Source: Bacilli bacterium (GTDB lineage: Bacteria; Bacillota_I; Bacilli_A; RF39; UBA660). From it: a stretch of 64,000 nt of DNA. The stretch spans positions 430 through 64,429 of the forward strand of contig JAFUTX010000017.1 of the NCBI GenBank assembly GCA_017484065.1, given 5' to 3'. Under the pieces are notes generated by a model. That model was given only the letters and a program-made list of their open reading frames with translations. It made no database searches and was not told where the DNA came from. Both the position numbers and the translations under genes were made by a program. Positions within the stretch are counted from its first letter, which is position 1. Every line of letters starts with the position of its first letter. Of the stretch, positions 1 through 54,853 are shown piece by piece.

Positions 1-108
1 ATAAAGGACTGGGCGAAGACCGAAAGCATTGTACGGGTCGCCGTAGCCGTTGACAAGGCCACTGGGATACACGGAAGCCACGTAGCCGGAGGCATCAGCA
101 CGCGGAGT
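1..108 (-). other. A-depleted, GC-rich last ~36 visible codons of the CDS; candidate DGR variable region
   Basis: By my count this stretch is ~59% G+C with only ~13% A on the coding strand. Codons are CTT/CGC/GTC/CCG/GGC/GCC/TCC rather than the TTA/AGA/GTA/GGT-type codons used in the rest of the gene. There is a run of NNC codons (GCC TCC GGC TAC .. GTC AAC GGC TAC GGC GAC). The peptide is WLMTPRADASGYVASVYPSGLVNGYGDPYNAFGLRPVLY. Confidence 0.4.
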
Positions 109-1527
109 CATTAACCATTGATACCAACCATCATATAAATAATTATTACCTCTACAGAACGTTCTATCACCTTGGCTCCAAGTATATAATGCATAACTAT
201 CACATAAAGCTTTATTACTAGTTGATCCACCACTTGTTGCATAACCATAATCACTTGGATACATCATACCAAATGGCCCCGTCCAAGTAAGTGGATTATA
301 ATTATTTATTGCTTGGTTAGTTCTTTCTGCTTCATACCATTTTGAAGATATCATTGTTTGATAAAAATATTGGTCACCACTTGTTGCATTATATCCACCT
401 AAATAATATGTTGCATCATCTACCAGATTTTTACTATTAACATTCATTCCACTTCCGACAAAATTCACATCTAATCTTTCCATATACCAATTTGTACTAC
501 CATTGAAATTTTCATATACTAAATTATTATATGAACTATCATAAGTACTATTATAGTAAGCACCTAATACTTTCTTTGCATCTGATGTTTCCCAGTTATT
601 GTTATAAATATAGGAACTACAAGCTTTTGTTTCCCAATTTATATTGCTATCTCTACAAGCTTCACTATATGAGTATCTACCTATATTTTCATTTCTTATT
701 ATTTTTACTCTAGACTCACCAGTCCCATCATCAGTTGATGAACCCGTAACATTGTTCATAACACCTATTATTCGCCATAGTTCATTATTAAACTTAACAT
801 AGTTTTTAGGGTTACTACCCATATATCTTAAGTTATTATCACTTGTTCCATCATAATACATTTCATCAGTATTATTTGAAACTATACTAGTAAGATAAGT
901 TACTGCATTTACTGGATTAAAGTTCTTAAGTTCTCCATATACGGTTACTTTACCTTCCCAAGCCTTATCCATCTCTGTTTTCGGAGCATCTTCATCTATC
1001 CATACTCTTAATGTAAAAGTTCTTCTTTCATTACCTGTTAAGAAACCACTATCTAAGATTCTTGTATCATAAGCTTCATTATTTAATAAAGTAGATGTAG
1101 ATTCATAACTATTTATTGGGTTTATCCCATTATCGTCAATTACTGCATCTAAATATGTTAAATCAAATCTATCAGAACTAGCTACACTAGTTAAACTTTC
1201 TAGATTAATATTATAAGCTATATAGCTATCACAACCATTTACTAATGTAAAAGTATAACCATCTAATTCCATTCCTTCTCTATCAAGAATTGGAAAAGCA
1301 TCTTCTAAAACTATAGCATCTCCTTCAGTATTTCTATCTATTTCTAATGATATACATGTACTTGCTACTTCATTTTTACCATTTTGTGTTCTTACTCTAA
1401 TCCATAAAGCTAAAGTTGTACCTATCATTAATAAAAGTATAAAAATAATTATTAAGCCTCTTTTTACGTTTTGGGTTATCTTTCTATGAAAAATACCCCC
1501 CCCCCGAATGTTTGTTTGATAATCCAT
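1..1527 (-). CDS. Membrane-anchored surface protein with its C-terminus cut by the window edge (509 codons visible). It carries an in-frame G10 tract and is a paralog of 53516..54772.
   Basis: Absent from the supplied ORF track because there is no stop inside the window. My own minus-strand translation finds GAAAGGTG, 11 nt, then ATG at 1527..1525. The product begins MDYQTNIRGGGIFHRKITQNVKRGLIIIFILLLMIGTTLALW. The frame stays open for exactly 509 codons down to position 1. Residues ~60-190 align by eye with the 53516..54772 product (C-x-L, YTF, N-x-C, WIDEDxP). Confidence 0.8.
   Translation of the reverse strand, partial: MDYQTNIRGGGIFHRKITQNVKRGLIIIFILLLMIGTTLALWIRVRTQNGKNEVASTCISLEIDRNTEGDAIVLEDAFPILDREGMELDGYTFTLVNGCDSYIAYNINLESLTSVASSDRFDLTYLDAVIDDNGINPINSYESTSTLLNNEAYDTRILDSGFLTGNERRTFTLRVWIDEDAPKTEMDKAWEGKVTVYGELKNFNPVNAVTYLTSIVSNNTDEMYYDGTSDNNLRYMGSNPKNYVKFNNELWRIIGVMNNVTGSSTDDGTGESRVKIIRNENIGRYSYSEACRDSNINWETKACSSYIYNNNWETSDAKKVLGAYYNSTYDSSYNNLVYENFNGSTNWYMERLDVNFVGSGMNVNSKNLVDDATYYLGGYNATSGDQYFYQTMISSKWYEAERTNQAINNYNPLTWTGPFGMMYPSDYGYATSGGSTSNKALCDSYALYTWSQGDRTFCRGNNYLYDGWYQWLMTPRADASGYVASVYPSGLVNGYGDPYNAFGLRPVLY
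1496..1505 (-). repeat. Homopolymeric G10 tract (C10 on the + strand) in codons 8-11 of the CDS; candidate slipped-strand phase-variation switch
   Basis: Read directly: ATT CGG GGG GGG GGT ATT. G10 keeps the frame open. G9 gives a stop at TAA after 6 more codons. G11 gives a stop at TAG after 4 more codons. Confidence 0.9.
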
Positions 1528-1994
1528 TTTTTTAACAACACCTTTCGTATTTCTATTCTATCTAAACTAATTTTATCACAATTAATTATACTATTTCAAG
1601 TTATTTATAACCAAGTTTGTTTATAATAACACTAGATGACATTATAAGTTATATTTGTTAACAAAAAAGTTTGACATTTACATTTACTACCCTAGGAACA
1701 ATATAATAAATATCTGTAATTAAATCCTTGTATGACTTTCCTTTATCCAATAATCGTTCAAATAATTTATCATAACAAAAAATTTGAATATTATGTTCAT
1801 TTATATATCCATGATTAAATAGTTCTAATGTAAGTATATTATGTTATTCAGGAAAAAAGATGTATGGGTTATACATCTTTATAGGTTAAGCATCAATTAT
1901 TTACTAGCTCCCACATATTTTGGAAAAAAATATAGTTGCAATCCCATTAACTTTAGATGATGTGTTAAGACTATAAAAAAAATAAAAAATAGCA

Positions 1995-2023: not shown

Positions 2024-2100
2024 TTACTTATGAGCAATAGTATTTTAACTCATAGATATAAAATCTTTATTAATATTATAGAAAATCAGGGGTGATTTTT

Positions 2101-3201
2101 GTGTTAAAAACATATAAATATAGAATATATCCTAATAGTGTTCAAAAAGAACAAATAGTTAAAACATTTGGATGTTGTAGATTTGTTTATAATGTATTAC
2201 TATCATACCGTATAGAAAAATATAAGAATAATAATGTCAATATGAGTAAAATTGATTGTAATAATTATTGCAATAGAGTTTTAAAAGAAGAATATCAATG
2301 GTTAAAAGAAGTAGATAAATTTGCTCTTACTAATTCTATATATAATATGGATAACGCTTTTATTAACTTTTTTAAAGGTAATTGTAAATATCCTAAATTT
2401 AAAAAGAAACATAGTGATCATAAATCATATACAACTAATTATACTAATAATAATATAGTTGTAGATTTTGATAAAAATATAATAAAACTACCTAAATTAA
2501 AAAGTGTTAAAGCAGTTGTTCACAGAAAATTTAATGGTAACATTAAAAATGCTACTATAACACAAACTCCAACTGGTAAATATTTTGCATCAATATTAGT
2601 TGATACCAATATTGATACATTACCTAGGATAACTAAGACTATAGGAATAGATCTAGGAATAAAAGATTTAGTTATAACATCAAATGGAGATACTTATGAA
2701 AATATAAAACCATTAAACAAATTAAAAGAAAAATTAATTATGCATCAAAGAAGACTTTCAAAAAAAGTTAAAGGAAGTAGTAATTATAAAAAAGAAAAAT
2801 TAAAGATAGCATTACTCCACGAAAAGATACATAATACAAGATGTGATTACTTACATAAGATAAGTAGCAGAATAGTAAACGAAAACCAAGTTATTATTAC
2901 TGAAGACTTACAAATTAAAAATATGATAAAGAATCACAATTTATCATCAAGTATTATAGATGCATCATGGAGTATATTGTCAAACCAATTAGAGTATAAA
3001 TCAAGATGGTATGGAAGACAATATGTAAAAGTAGATAAATTCTACGCTAGTAGTCAAATATGTAGCAGCTGTGGTTATAAGAACAGTGATATAAAAGATT
3101 TATCTATAAGAGAATGGATCTGTCCAAATTGTGGCAAAGAACATAACCGTGATATAAATGCTGCTATAAACATACTACATCAAGGATTACAACTAGTATA
3201 A
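2101..3201 (+). CDS. tnpB: TnpB (OrfB_IS605) RNA-guided nuclease
   Basis: N-terminus is [18 protein letters not shown]. RuvC motifs are [14 protein letters not shown] and [11 protein letters not shown] zinc ribbon is present ([16 protein letters not shown]). The start is probably GTG at 2101, after AGGGGTG; the track starts at 2092. Confidence 0.9.
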
Positions 3202-8989: not shown

Positions 8990-10742
8990 CGGTAACGCCT
9001 ATATTATCTGCATCAACATCATCACTTTCACTTGATGTTGGAGCAATTGCTACTTTAATTTTGAATGATGAACCACTTAATACAGTATAACCAGCTGGTT
9101 TACTTTGATAGAATATTGTACCAACTTGATATTCGCTAGTTTCAATTTCTTCAATTTCTACTGTTAAACCATTAGTTTCAGCAAAGTTTTGAACATTAGT
9201 TATATTAAACGAACCATCAGTAAAATCTGGATATTTAATAACAATATTAGGAATATAAATAGTTATTGTGTCGCCACTTTCAAGTTCTTCGCCACTCTTC
9301 TTGGATTGATCAATTATCTCTCCTTCACCATATTTATTTTCATCATCAATATCTTTTTTCTCAACTAAAACTTTAACTCCTTGTGCTTCTAAGGCACCTT
9401 TTATTTCTAAATAATTTTTACCAGTATAATCTTCTACAGCTATTTTGCTACTTCCTGTAGAAACATATAAAACTATTTCTGTGCCTTTTTTCTTCTTAGT
9501 GCCTACATTTGGATTAGTTTTAACTACACAACCTTCGGCAACGTCACTACTACTAATTTCTTGTTCATCATCACTGATAACAAACCCTTTATCTTGCAGC
9601 TTTTCAATAGCTTCTTCAACCGGCATGCCAACTACATCTGGTATTTCAATCTTTGCTTGATTCGTAATTGCTGGTAAAAGCAAGAATATTGATGTAACAA
9701 TAACAATCAAACCAGTAAAGATTGATAATAGAATAATTAATAATTTATTTTGTTTTTTCTCTTCATCAGGATTTATTTTAATAGCTATTTCTTCATCTGT
9801 CATAGGCTTATTGACTTTTTTACTTTCCTGAACCATTTTAGCCATTCTAGCATCATCATAATCAAACTCAGGGAATTTGTATCTAACTCTAGGTTCATTT
9901 CTTCTAGACTCTTCTAAACAAGTTTTTAAATCTTCATGCATTTCCCTAGCATCTAAATATCTATTTTTTGGATTCTTAGCTGTAGAACGTAAAATAATAT
10001 TTTCAATACTTTGTGGTAAATTAGGCAAATCTACCATTATACTTGGCAATGGTTCTTTTAAATGTTTCAAAGCTATTTCAACTGCATTATCGCCTTTATA
10101 TGGTAGTTTTCCGGTTAATAATTCATACATTAAAATACCCATTGAATAAATATCGCTTTGAAGTGTTGCACCCTTACCATTAGCTTGCTCCGGAGGTAGA
10201 TAATGTACACTCCCCATAACCGAATTAGTTTGGGTAAGTTGGGTTGCGTTCATGGCCATAGCAATACCAAAATCGGTTATTTTAACCATACCATTTTCTA
10301 AAATCATTATATTTTGTGGTTTTATATCACGGTGAATTATATAACTATCATGAGCAACACTCATGCCATCAGTTATTTGAAGCATTATATCTACTACTTC
10401 ACTTACAGTTAATTTACCACGTTTTTTAAGTAAATTTTTAAGATGTTTACCATCAATGTACTCCATAACTATATAGTATTGACCATTATCTTCTCCAACA
10501 TCATATACTTCAACTATATTTGGATGATTTAAACTCGATGCTGATAACGCTTCTCTTTGAAAACGACGAACAAATTTTTCATCAGTAGCTAAATCTCCGC
10601 GTAAAACTTTAACTGCTACATTTCTGTCTAATATGGTGTCATATGCCAAATAAACATTAGCCATACCACCTTCACCAATACTCTTAATTATTTGGTATCT
10701 TTCACTAATCTTTTGCCCTTTCATTATCATTTTATTCTTCAC
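8976..10742 (-). CDS. pknB: PASTA-domain Ser/Thr protein kinase
   Basis: Kinase motifs HRDIKPQN and DFG, followed by a TM segment and C-terminal PASTA-like repeats. Confidence 0.9.
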   Translation of the reverse strand: MKNKMIMKGQKISERYQIIKSIGEGGMANVYLAYDTILDRNVAVKVLRGDLATDEKFVRRFQREALSASSLNHPNIVEVYDVGEDNGQYYIVMEYIDGKHLKNLLKKRGKLTVSEVVDIMLQITDGMSVAHDSYIIHRDIKPQNIMILENGMVKITDFGIAMAMNATQLTQTNSVMGSVHYLPPEQANGKGATLQSDIYSMGILMYELLTGKLPYKGDNAVEIALKHLKEPLPSIMVDLPNLPQSIENIILRSTAKNPKNRYLDAREMHEDLKTCLEESRRNEPRVRYKFPEFDYDDARMAKMVQESKKVNKPMTDEEIAIKINPDEEKKQNKLLIILLSIFTGLIVIVTSIFLLLPAITNQAKIEIPDVVGMPVEEAIEKLQDKGFVISDDEQEISSSDVAEGCVVKTNPNVGTKKKKGTEIVLYVSTGSSKIAVEDYTGKNYLEIKGALEAQGVKVLVEKKDIDDENKYGEGEIIDQSKKSGEELESGDTITIYIPNIVIKYPDFTDGSFNITNVQNFAETNGLTVEIEEIETSEYQVGTIFYQSKPAGYTVLSGSSFKIKVAIAPTSSESDDVDADNIGVTDGLQ

Positions 10743-11475
10743 CGCTTTCCATTATTAAATACGCAATTGATATATTATCAGTTCCACCCCTTGAATTACA
10801 TTTTTTAACTAATTTTATTAATTTACTTTCAATATCTAATTCTTCATCATTTAATACTTTTTCAATCTGTTCTACGCTCATTAAGTTTGTTAAACCATCG
10901 CTACATAAAAGTATTGCTTCACTACGCATATCAACATCATATAAATCAAGTTCTGCCTTTTCTGTAGCTCCTAAAGCTTTCATTAAAACATTTTTCTTAG
11001 GATGATATTTTGCTTCTTCTTCTGTTAAATCTCCTGCTTCCACAAGCAAATTAACTAATGTATGATCATGAGTCACTTTCTTTAAATGTTTATCTATCAT
11101 TACAAAACCAGACGAATCTCCAATATTTCCGAAAAGAAGGTAATCATGAGTTAAAAGAGCTATAACAATAGTAGTACCCATCCCAACTGAATCTGGATGA
11201 ACACTCGCATAATCTAATATATTTTTATTTATTTCGTTAACATTATCATTAAGCCAATTAGCTGCATCTATTTTTGAACCCATTGAATTAACTTGTGAAA
11301 AACGTTTACCCAAATGAGTTACTGCAATAGAGCTTGCAACTTCCCCCTTCCGATGTCCACCCATACCATCAGCAATTACCATTAAATACTCATCACTAGC
11401 ATTTTTTAAAATGGTAACACTATCTTCATTATGACTGCGAACACGGCCTACATCTGTTAAATAGTAAGCTTTCAA
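10732..11475 (-). CDS. stp: PP2C-family Ser/Thr phosphatase
   Basis: Motifs RSHNEDS, ADGMGGH and CSDGL. It overlaps the pknB start. Confidence 0.9.
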   Translation of the reverse strand: MKAYYLTDVGRVRSHNEDSVTILKNASDEYLMVIADGMGGHRKGEVASSIAVTHLGKRFSQVNSMGSKIDAANWLNDNVNEINKNILDYASVHPDSVGMGTTIVIALLTHDYLLFGNIGDSSGFVMIDKHLKKVTHDHTLVNLLVEAGDLTEEEAKYHPKKNVLMKALGATEKAELDLYDVDMRSEAILLCSDGLTNLMSVEQIEKVLNDEELDIESKLIKLVKKCNSRGGTDNISIAYLIMESGEE

Positions 11476-11476
11476 A

Positions 11477-12499
11477 TTACCTCACCTCTTTACTCCTTAA
11501 TTGACCACAAGCAGCAGAAATATTACTGCCAAATTCTTTTCTTATCGTCACATTAATATTATTCTTCTTTAGTGTATCATAAAACTGCATTATACGATTT
11601 TTGCTGCTTTTTTTAAATTCAATATGATTAGTTTCGTTATAAGGTATTAAATTAACATAAACATTTAACCCTTTTAGTAAATTAGATAACTCTATAGCAT
11701 TTTCTATATTATCATTTACTAAATTAAGCATAACATATTCTATAGTAACTCGTCTATTAGTTTGCGCAATATAATCCTTTATAGCTGTTAATAATTTGTC
11801 TAAACTGTAAACTTTGTTTACATTCATTAATTTATTTCTTAGCTCGTTATTTGATGCATGCAAACTTATTGCCAGATTAACTTGCAATGGAAATTTAGCA
11901 AATTCATATATTTTAGGAACAAGACCACAAGTAGATACGGTAATATGACGTGCTCCAATAGCAAGACCTTTACTATTATTAATAATAGTAATAAAATTCA
12001 TTACATTATCATAATTATCAAAAGGTTCGCCAATTCCCATGACAACTACACTAGATATTCTTTTATTTATATCTTGTTCAATAAGGAGAATTTGTTCAAC
12101 CATTTCATATGTCTCAAGATTTCTTATTTTTTTAAGACGGCCACTCTCACAAAAAGCACAACCCATATTACAACCTACTTGACTAGAAACACAAATACTT
12201 AGTCCATAATCATGCTCCATTAATACTGCTTCTACAAATTCACTATCACTAAGTTCAAATAAATATTTTTTAGTTAGATTATCTTCTTCTTTTTTTACTA
12301 TTTTAATAAAATCTAAAGAATAGTCTTCCTTAATTTTTTCTCTAATATCCTTCTTAATATTAGACCAATCATCTACATTAAATTCTTTCTTTTGATATAG
12401 CCATTCATATACTTGTAAAGCTTTAAATTTCTTTTCATTAATACTTAAAAAATACAATTCTAATTGTTCTCTAGATTTACTCATTATATTATTTTTCAA
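11477..12499 (-). CDS. rlmN: 23S rRNA/tRNA A2503/A37 methyltransferase RlmN (radical SAM)
   Basis: Motif GCNMGCAFCESG plus a C-terminal conserved Cys (SAACGQL). Confidence 0.9.
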   Translation of the reverse strand: MKNNIMSKSREQLELYFLSINEKKFKALQVYEWLYQKKEFNVDDWSNIKKDIREKIKEDYSLDFIKIVKKEEDNLTKKYLFELSDSEFVEAVLMEHDYGLSICVSSQVGCNMGCAFCESGRLKKIRNLETYEMVEQILLIEQDINKRISSVVVMGIGEPFDNYDNVMNFITIINNSKGLAIGARHITVSTCGLVPKIYEFAKFPLQVNLAISLHASNNELRNKLMNVNKVYSLDKLLTAIKDYIAQTNRRVTIEYVMLNLVNDNIENAIELSNLLKGLNVYVNLIPYNETNHIEFKKSSKNRIMQFYDTLKKNNINVTIRKEFGSNISAACGQLRSKEVR

Positions 12500-53515: not shown

Positions 53516-54772
53516 TTAGTTTGCTATCCAGTTGGCTGTATAAGTTCTATTACCTGTGCTACCTTTTGGTATTGTTACTGTAGTTTGATTATTAATGTAT
53601 GGTTCATAATCTGTTACTTCAGTACCTTCTTCTATTTGTAAATATTTCAAATAAACTTTTGAATTGACGTAAGTCCCTCTGCCATAAGAAAAATAAATTT
53701 TAATTATGTCTTTATTTATATCTGAAATATCAATTTGTTTAATATCATTACTACCACTTATACGAATAAGACTAGATGTGCCATCATAATAATATTGATT
53801 AATATCAAACTGTTGATATGTACCATATTCTTCTTGATAATCGGTATGGCCAAGCGCTGAAATGGCATATTTTGAATTCGCACGAATACTCAAATTAGGT
53901 ATTCCATTTTCAAAAGTCATAACATGTGCATAATATGGGTGAAATATGTAATAATCATTTTCTTTTTTTGCTCCATCAATAGCCATAAGTATCGTTTCTT
54001 CATCAAACAAATTCTTACCACCACTCCATCCTGCAAAGGTATATCCTTCCCTAGTTGGAGTATTCAATGTAAAATCAATATCATTTTCATCATATTCTGT
54101 TCTGTTTATTTTTGAGATTGTTCCTCCATCTAAATCATATGTTATATGCCATTTAGTTGGATTAGTATTTTCTGGTGCTTCTGTATTTACTATTTCTATC
54201 TTACTTTCAAATACTTTGTTATTAATATCTTCATATGGTGTATCTTCATCTATCCATAAATATAGGTTATATTCTTTGGTAGTGTTTCCATCTATTTTTT
54301 CTATCTCTAATTTCTTAGCAGTATTATATCTATCTATATTTATTTCACTACTATCTGATAATTCACTTATAGTAGATGGCCATACTATATAATCATTATC
54401 ACTTATCAATGATAATCTTAAATTGTTTGTAGATAGTGTATTACTACTTTTCATATCTAACTGAATACTTACATACTCATCACTATTACAATTATTAGTT
54501 ATTTTAAAGGTATATGGTACTTGTTCTAAAGCTTCACTATCACTTAATTGATATGCATTAACTAAGTTAATTGGTTTATTATCATTAACTACTAAATCTA
54601 AACAACTAATATTTACTTGATTAAAACCTTCTTGTTGTTCTGTAGCACTCCATAAAGCGTAACTATAACTACTTACTACTATTACAAGTATAGCTACTAT
54701 TATTGAGCTTATTATTATCTTTTTCTTTTTATTATTCTTCTTTAAATAAAGATTTTTACCCCTGACTATCAT
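53516..54772 (-). CDS. Membrane-anchored surface protein: paralog-shared N-domain, a Listeria-Bacteroides-type repeat, and a C-terminal beta-rich domain
   Basis: The TM anchor is IIISSIIVAILVIVVSSYSYALW. The WIDEDTP motif is shared with the 1..1527 product. HITYDLDGG..REGYTFAGW is the List-Bact repeat signature. It has its own SD (AGGTGAG). Confidence 0.75.
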   Translation of the reverse strand: MIVRGKNLYLKKNNKKKKIIISSIIVAILVIVVSSYSYALWSATEQQEGFNQVNISCLDLVVNDNKPINLVNAYQLSDSEALEQVPYTFKITNNCNSDEYVSIQLDMKSSNTLSTNNLRLSLISDNDYIVWPSTISELSDSSEINIDRYNTAKKLEIEKIDGNTTKEYNLYLWIDEDTPYEDINNKVFESKIEIVNTEAPENTNPTKWHITYDLDGGTISKINRTEYDENDIDFTLNTPTREGYTFAGWSGGKNLFDEETILMAIDGAKKENDYYIFHPYYAHVMTFENGIPNLSIRANSKYAISALGHTDYQEEYGTYQQFDINQYYYDGTSSLIRISGSNDIKQIDISDINKDIIKIYFSYGRGTYVNSKVYLKYLQIEEGTEVTDYEPYINNQTTVTIPKGSTGNRTYTANWIAN

Positions 54773-54817: not shown

Positions 54818-54853
54818 TTACAAAGCCCCCCCCCGATTTTGATTTTTAGCCAT
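54818..54853 (-). promoter_or_regulatory. 11-codon leader uORF (MAKNQNRGGAL) containing the G9 tract
   Basis: GAAAGGTGTTGTTGAAT then ATG (54853..54851), then CGG GGG GGG GCT TTG TAA. The layout is homologous to the first codons of the 1..1527 gene. Confidence 0.45.
54826..54834 (-). repeat. Homopolymeric G9 tract (C9 on the + strand) in the leader of the surface-protein gene
   Basis: Read directly. This is one of only two G/C runs longer than 5 that I saw in the window. Confidence 0.9.

Follow-up and report, generated by a model that had tools for sequence, protein, structure and literature searches.

In Mtd of Bordetella phage BPP-1 and in TvpA of Treponema, a C-terminal variable region (VR) has a binding-site role and varies specifically at adenines, and the diversity-generating retroelement (DGR, a known type of hypermutation system) of Treponema denticola has seven extra, remote targets. 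Among surface protein families, Vlp of Mycoplasma and Opa/Opc of Neisseria are phase-switched by homopolymer tracts. DUF6273 is a published DGR target domain that carries the VR at its C-terminus and has been called C-type-lectin-like (PMC11792537, PMC10743442); the targets of Faecalibacterium prophages have their VR at the C-terminal end of this domain (PMC11792537). DGR cassettes of the MSL type combine a MutS-like accessory gene with Avd and correspond to architecture D of Wu et al. 2018 (PMC5758913). In that study, 73 non-adjacent targets were assigned to 45 of 372 DGRs, and assignment of a remote target requires a template repeat (TR) with A-to-N differences only (PMC5758913).

The window (the whole stretch of DNA analysed here, 64,000 nt) begins within the 3' part of a gene that can be compared with each of these systems. 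The gene resembles the DUF6273 DGR targets of gut phages (tentaclins of crAss-like phages and the Faecalibacterium prophage targets) in the predicted fold of its product and in the combination of NNC/NNT codons with an adenine-free scaffold, and the position of its VR-type block at the C-terminus of DUF6273 is that of the Faecalibacterium targets. It differs from the phage targets in being chromosomal, in encoding a membrane anchor and a beta-sandwich, in having at least 13 paralogs, and in that neither a TR nor a reverse transcriptase (RT) was found for it. A C-terminal VR is also shared with Mtd and TvpA, which are absent from the fold-search matches. Relatives of the gene (loci L031, L060 and L064) belong to MSL-type cassettes with target, TR, MutS_I-like and bAvd-like genes and an RVT_1 RT (GLPIGNMTSQ), whereas no such component lies in the window or the adjoining 428 nt. 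As in remote DGR targets, for example those of Treponema denticola, a VR-type block is located in a surface-protein gene without a nearby cassette; the A-to-N-only TR through which remote targets are assigned was, however, not found for the window's block. The variable poly-G tract (G10/G9) in the 5' part of the gene is like those of Vlp and Opa/Opc, and concerns candidate on/off expression, not the block. The features of the gene are the following.

1..1527, minus strand: gene for a secreted/anchored surface protein of 531 aa (from translation; identical full-length proteins P0121/P0001)
1399..1473, minus strand: N-terminal hydrophobic helix, putative signal anchor, residues 19-43 (predicted helix)
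925..1365, minus strand: predicted N-terminal beta-sandwich (Ig-like) domain, residues ~55-201 (model all-beta over 59-201)
1..915, minus strand: predicted DUF6273-like C-terminal domain, residues ~205-531 (AlphaFold and Foldseek)
1..108 and ~3 nt past the window edge, minus strand: VR-type block encoding TPRADASGYVASVYPSGLVNGYGDPYNAFGLRPV (composition, codon statistics and positional homology)
1496..1505, minus strand: poly-G tract of 10 (C10 on the plus strand), codons 8-11 (length differs between assemblies)
1570..1599, minus strand: promoter-like site TTGAAA, 18 nt, TG-TAAAAT, 43 nt upstream of the ATG (consensus scan alone; such sites are no more numerous than the shuffled expectation)

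The window holds 509 codons of this gene and no stop; the remaining 22 codons, with the stop after them, fall outside it, past position 1. The identical 531-aa protein (P0001/P0121) is encoded on the 64.7-kb contig L001. The signal anchor ends in the motif G-x-S/T-Y/L-A-x-W, which is conserved in the family alignment. AlphaFold models of the protein had a pLDDT of 85-87. Fold searches with the whole protein were dominated by Ig-like folds, with pilin and chaperone folds also returned. The C-terminal domain matched the IgA peptidase of Thomasclavelia ramosa, 9qa6 (Foldseek E = 1e-5, probability 1.0), the N-terminal domain of which is DUF6273 (PMC12402451); phage DUF6273 proteins were likewise matched by fold (Foldseek E from 1e-4 to 1e-2), and matches to C-type lectin domains were very weak, local and non-significant (E > 1). 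PF19789 (DUF6273) is among the precomputed annotations of the homologs P0003, P0018, P0021 and others; on the window's protein itself it remained below threshold, with Pfam giving just a sub-threshold Ig_7, and a profile search with this protein matched no chain among the PDB sequences. The structural models assign the window's protein to the DUF6273-type fold and predict that the VR-type block supplies the last strands of the DUF6273-like domain.

The G+C content of the block is 0.59-0.60 over 108-110 nt (0.58 for positions 1-100), compared to 0.32 for the whole gene and 0.256 for the whole window. Over every 108-nt segment of the 64 kb, G+C averages 0.256 (sd 0.058), and the peak of 0.602, in the segment that starts at position 2, belongs to the sole region that reaches 0.50 or more. 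On the coding (minus) strand, A makes up 11.8% over 110 nt and 14% over 108 nt, against 36.5% gene-wide. C occupies the third position in 17 of 34 codons of the block vs. 28 of 497 in the rest of the gene (Fisher p = 2 × 10−11), and A does so in 1 of 34 vs. 188 of 497 (p = 7 × 10−6). Arginine is encoded by CGT/CGC inside the block and by AGA in the remaining gene, glycine by GGC vs. GGT/GGA, and valine by GTG/GTC vs. GTA/GTT; the scaffold of the block is adenine-free, with NNC/NNT codons at the variable positions. Thus, the GC-rich, A-poor 3' block that the initial annotation had described in a surface-protein gene at positions 1..108 is confirmed by both composition and codon statistics, far beyond chance, and the codon string quoted there is correct. 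A search for direct and inverted repeats yielded no copy of positions 1..108 in the window.

On the parent contig L001, the block stops 3 nt outside the window and is followed by ~20 AT-rich codons (KSSVKIVGGIGTSLDPYILSA) and the stop codon. With its clean end and the return to AT-rich coding sequence, the block is an internal module of ~110 nt, rather than the start of a foreign gene or a chimera; it does not continue as a foreign high-GC gene fragment, an outcome that the initial annotation had named as counting against a VR. The same block sequence is present in six independent assemblies, which argues against an assembly artefact. The protein alignment runs unbroken through the block, and the effect recurs at this very place in family members from many low-GC genomes.

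The window's protein has more than 5000 homologs, and its family has undergone a great expansion in RF39-like Bacilli of the gut. We fetched 79 family loci from gut MAGs labelled Bacilli, 'Tenericutes' or Mycoplasma sp. CAG:956. In the family alignment, the N-terminal anchor, the beta-sandwich domain and a conserved C-terminal domain follow one another, and inside the last of these a hypervariable stretch lies between QWTxTP and RPVxYL, with nearly invariant flanks. Complete DGR cassettes of relatives adjoin genes of this same family, in the order target, TR, MutS-like gene, Avd and RT. A motif scan of the loci detected RTs with GLPIGNMTSQ...YMDD in L060 and L064, and Pfam confirmed RVT_1, bAvd-like and small MutS_I-like proteins at the cassettes of the relatives; a protein search with the L064 RT matched 2043 homologs. 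In the TR scan, a candidate base had to be identical to that of the VR, or A, with the following results.

L064: VR/TR core of 94 nt, 20 mismatches at TR adenines and 0 elsewhere; target, TR, MutS_I-like, bAvd and RVT_1 RT
L031: VR/TR core of 107 nt, 17 mismatches at TR adenines and 1 elsewhere
L042: VR/TR core of 103 nt, 18 mismatches at TR adenines and 0 elsewhere
L060: complete cassette, with the TR located after the RT

The VR cores of the relatives (94-107 nt) compare with ~108-110 nt for the window's block and occupy exactly the same alignment position, between the QWTxTP strand and RPVxYL; in L064, L031 and L042, the TR starts 82-146 nt past the stop codon of the target. The target in L031 is the closest homolog of the window's gene in the genome collection (41% identity). 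Opposite AAC/AAT in the L031 template, the window has GCC TCC GGC TAC, CTT, AAC GGC TAC GGC GAC, and TAC AAT, so that 10 of these 12 codons end in C and 2 in T. The 3' 26 nt of the block are identical at 25 of 26 positions to the 3' end of the L031 VR, where the homology between TR and VR stops. Inspection by eye revealed no hairpin after the VR, as conserved in the Bordetella phage, that was consistent across L031, L064 and the window. Taken together, homology, length, position and composition indicate that the window's block is a DGR-type VR, and this part of the interpretation offered by the initial annotation is borne out by the positional homology to TR-paired VRs with RT, Avd and MutS-like genes alongside and by the NNC/NNT codons.

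The loci of relatives also bear on the reach and the persistence of the cassettes. In two cassette-bearing genomes, the adjacent target alone fits the TR (103/108), and the paralogs show 22-45 non-adenine mismatches. Locus L042 (4171-5020) is syntenic with L064 (1085-3634) and has lost the MutS-like, Avd and RT genes, with TR and VR kept; comparison of L042 with L064 catches DGR decay in progress, and shows that cassette loss occurs in this family. In L059, two family genes 9.6 kb apart (1077-1184 and 10659-10766) carry VRs on one scaffold that differ at 13, 10 and 3 sites in codon positions 1, 2 and 3, respectively, and each of the two fits the L042 TR at 94-95 of 108 positions. No TR is present in the L059 locus, and two VRs of the same scaffold without a local TR point to multi-target, non-adjacent DGR action in this family.

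The initial annotation placed the RT and the TR presumably just outside the window. This expectation fails: contig L001 continues for 428 nt past position 1, which comprise 69 nt of the gene and 359 nt that are non-coding in all six frames, with neither a TR nor an ORF. An arrangement of the L031/L064 type is excluded here, because there is no TR in the 428 nt although that of the relatives starts 82-146 nt after the stop codon, and an arrangement of the L060 type is not present, because it needs an ORF that starts inside the 359 nt, and there is no such ORF. The 359-nt flank holds a GC-rich 40-mer and a terminator-like hairpin. The 40-mer, CGAACAAGTGCCGATGGACGGCGAGGTCGTTCCGGACAG, lies at L001 11597-11636, just after the stop codon in the AT-rich intergenic region, and has no homolog among the fetched loci and no Rfam match; for the gene end and the downstream region together, Rfam returned chance-level matches only. 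Further out, at L001 11815-11945 (300-430 nt past position 1), there are four copies of a ~15-nt unit, TTTAGTGGGGAG/GATTTAGTGGGGAGT, spaced by 34-37 nt. Each of the six assemblies of the locus breaks off among these TTTAGTGGGGAG repeats (at L001 coordinates 11869-11955), suggesting that a multi-copy or variable element lies further out.

Under the rule given above, the scan for a cognate TR came back empty for the window and the adjoining 428 nt of L001, for four further loci of this organism (77 kb) and for the 79 loci of relatives. RT motifs are absent from the 64-kb window, and none of four paralog loci inspected in this organism has an RVT_1 gene as a neighbour; the sequence of this organism inspected for TR and RT amounts to ~140 kb of an incomplete genome. 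The scaffold pattern common to the window and L002 gave 0 matches in genome, metagenome and viral contig collections. The repeat, TR-rule and RT-motif searches thus agree with the initial annotation, which had found no template repeat or RT inside the window; a lack of RT and TR over several kb, which it regarded as evidence against a VR, does apply to the available flank, although this flank is limited to 428 nt.

Over 82 family members, block G+C forms a continuum from 0.21 to 0.60, with the window's block the most G+C-enriched and the most A-depleted of all; it is at least as extreme as the VRs with a cognate TR (0.54-0.56). The locus tags of thirteen paralogs belong to one MAG, IJ574, of a 'Bacilli bacterium' from the ruminant gut; this is probably the same organism, since one IJ574 contig comes from the same sample as the window's contig. 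Eight paralog blocks in the window's organism range in G+C from 0.39 to 0.61, and the three richest blocks of the organism (0.59, 0.59 and 0.61) differ by indels and at third codon positions, implying that no single template is shared among them. We specifically ruled out one template for the window's block and that of either L082 or L002, given a codon indel and many third-position differences. Strain variants of one paralog, P0124 and P0125, have ~12 residue differences from P0004, nearly all in residues 316-377, a 60-residue stretch of the DUF6273-like domain, and the three are near-identical outside it. From its sequence, this stretch looks like a recombination patch between paralogs rather than the product of point mutation. 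An additional ORF of the window, 53516..54772 (minus strand, 418 aa), has the anchor and beta-sandwich module of the family with another C-terminus that lacks the DUF6273 part.

Comparison of the consensus sequences of six assemblies from at least three BioSamples shows 0 differences in the block, and three SNPs plus a change in poly-G length in the rest of the same gene. The block of the paralog P0004 is likewise identical between strains that are 98% identical. Invariance of the block across strains, which the initial annotation had listed as evidence against a VR, was therefore observed; however, only ~4 SNPs per 11.5 kb separate these assemblies, and among strains so nearly identical, invariance is weak evidence of inactivity. 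Separately, a metagenome contig (L088; ERZ28019087 k141_732326) that appeared to be a second paralog with the same C-terminus was ruled out: its first 66 nt (1-66) are Illumina adapter and index-primer sequence fused to a gene fragment.

The poly-G tract at 1496-1505 is G10 in the window and in L001 and G9 in L085, L086 and L087. In the G9 form, the ORF is called from Met34 onward and lacks the N-terminal anchor (P0122, 498 aa). From these sequences, the tract is a candidate translational phase-variation switch, with homopolymer assembly error as an alternative. Poly-G tracts of 8-10 occur family-wide, with ~40 in 1.27 Mb of loci from many MAGs; those of a promoter-spacer type sit between a TTGACA -35 and a TATAAT -10, and those of a coding type in codons 7-10 after ATG..AAT C. 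Their positions include the following.

L005 7278 and 9802; L007 9811; L012 9890; L025 9733; L053 9016; L079 9856: family poly-G tracts
L066 8538; L018 8688 and 10463; L024 9222; L031 7302; L002 9923; L084 9936: further family poly-G tracts

A second G9 tract of the window (54826-54834, minus strand) lies in a short leader (MAKNQNRGG...) just upstream of the ORF 53516..54772, and this leader runs into a stop in each tract-length frame tried. Directly upstream of the surface-protein gene is a gene for an IS605-family OrfB/TnpB (Cas12f1-like TNB) at 2092..3201 on the plus strand; of the four SNPs between the window and L001, two (positions 2569 and 2571) are in this TnpB gene.

What process could have produced the block, and in what state it is now, can be weighed from these data. 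The explanation that we place first, with our confidence evenly balanced, is that the block is an orphan, frozen VR of a DGR-target-type gene, the retroelement not being adjacent. An RT would have copied an A-rich template repeat, misincorporating at template adenines, and the mutagenic cDNA would have replaced the 3' end of the target gene (mutagenic retrohoming). Scaffold positions would consist of adenine-free G/C-rich codons, and about a dozen ligand-contact codons would be NNC/NNT derived from AAC/AAT, the block being carried by a DUF6273-like binding domain at the tip of the secreted surface protein. The gene would later have been duplicated away from the cassette, or the cassette lost, and the block would no longer be diversified. 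That retrohoming wrote this copy, and that the copy is now inactive, is what we infer on both counts. The continuum of block G+C across the 82 members is as expected if former VRs decay to genome composition under AT pressure. Orphan status is also favoured by the lack of a TR or RT in the available sequence, by the fit of the TR to the adjacent target alone in two cassette-bearing genomes, by the three richest blocks of the organism, which cannot share one template, by the cassette loss seen in L042 and, weakly, by the invariance of the block. In the window's block itself, which is at least as extreme as the TR-paired VRs, no decay is visible, and this counts against orphan status; the intact 3' end of the block, the non-adjacent targeting in L059 and the incompleteness of the genome also weigh against it. 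The same points favour a VR that is still active as a remote target, diversified in trans from a DGR cassette (TR, Avd and RT) at another site of the genome; we regard this as quite possible, though with less than even confidence. Under this explanation, the compositional signature would be maximal and free of decay, as it is, the 3' boundary would be intact (25/26 identical to the TR-paired L031 VR), and the two same-scaffold VRs of L059, with no TR in the locus, would be a parallel within the family; such targets are documented in the literature (PMC5758913), and the inspected part of the genome is just ~140 kb. It is countered by the lack of either a TR or an RT in the available sequence of this organism, by the identity of the block in six assemblies, and by the two cassette-bearing genomes tested, where the TR is not the template of the paralogs; moreover, one TR cannot serve all three of the equally GC-rich paralog blocks, and most of them must therefore be orphans in any case.

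Explanations that dispense with a DGR fare worse than either an orphan or a remotely served VR. Horizontal transfer or recombination could have brought in GC-rich DNA, or selection could have acted on the amino acids or on a nucleic-acid structure within the block. Either would fit with the failure to find a cognate TR or RT for this copy and with the invariance of the block among assemblies, but such an origin is improbable: the alignment is continuous, and the family shows the same effect at the same place in many low-GC genomes; the bias is seen at synonymous sites and is directed specifically against adenine; the homologous blocks of relatives have TRs with adenine-only mismatches; no Rfam family was matched; and the block has a clean end with AT-rich coding sequence afterwards. 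It is hardly conceivable that the block is an assembly chimera or a contaminant fragment at a contig end. Its location near the contig end and the public fragment L088 with an Illumina adapter at the 5' end could be taken to suggest this, yet six assemblies, made from different samples and with different assemblers, agree on every base of the block. It is also in frame with the gene, and after it come 66 nt of coding sequence conserved in the family, then a stop and a terminator-like hairpin.

Building on the orphan, frozen VR, a two-tier scheme of surface variation can be put forward as a tentative and somewhat doubtful proposal. In this scheme, a DGR would write the tips of DUF6273 adhesins one gene at a time, duplication or cassette loss would leave a genomic library of at least a dozen frozen, pre-diversified tips, and a poly-G tract in its promoter spacer or its 5' codons would turn each gene on or off; the window's gene would be a recently frozen member.

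DUF6273-type DGR targets and MSL-type cassettes are already known; the window's gene adds a further such target, and is notable mainly for the abundance of orphan VRs and the candidate poly-G switches in its family. In a very AT-rich genome, a DGR VR is recognisable from composition alone, and this compositional signature does not imply an adjacent or active retroelement. Because most of the GC-rich blocks of the family are without a cassette, RT-first surveys of DGRs miss them, and composition-first scans would overcall activity. For uncultured RF39-like gut Bacilli, these findings point to a large DUF6273 surface family with tips shaped by hypermutation and expression that is apparently poly-G-switched, the members of which are candidates for host or phage interaction.
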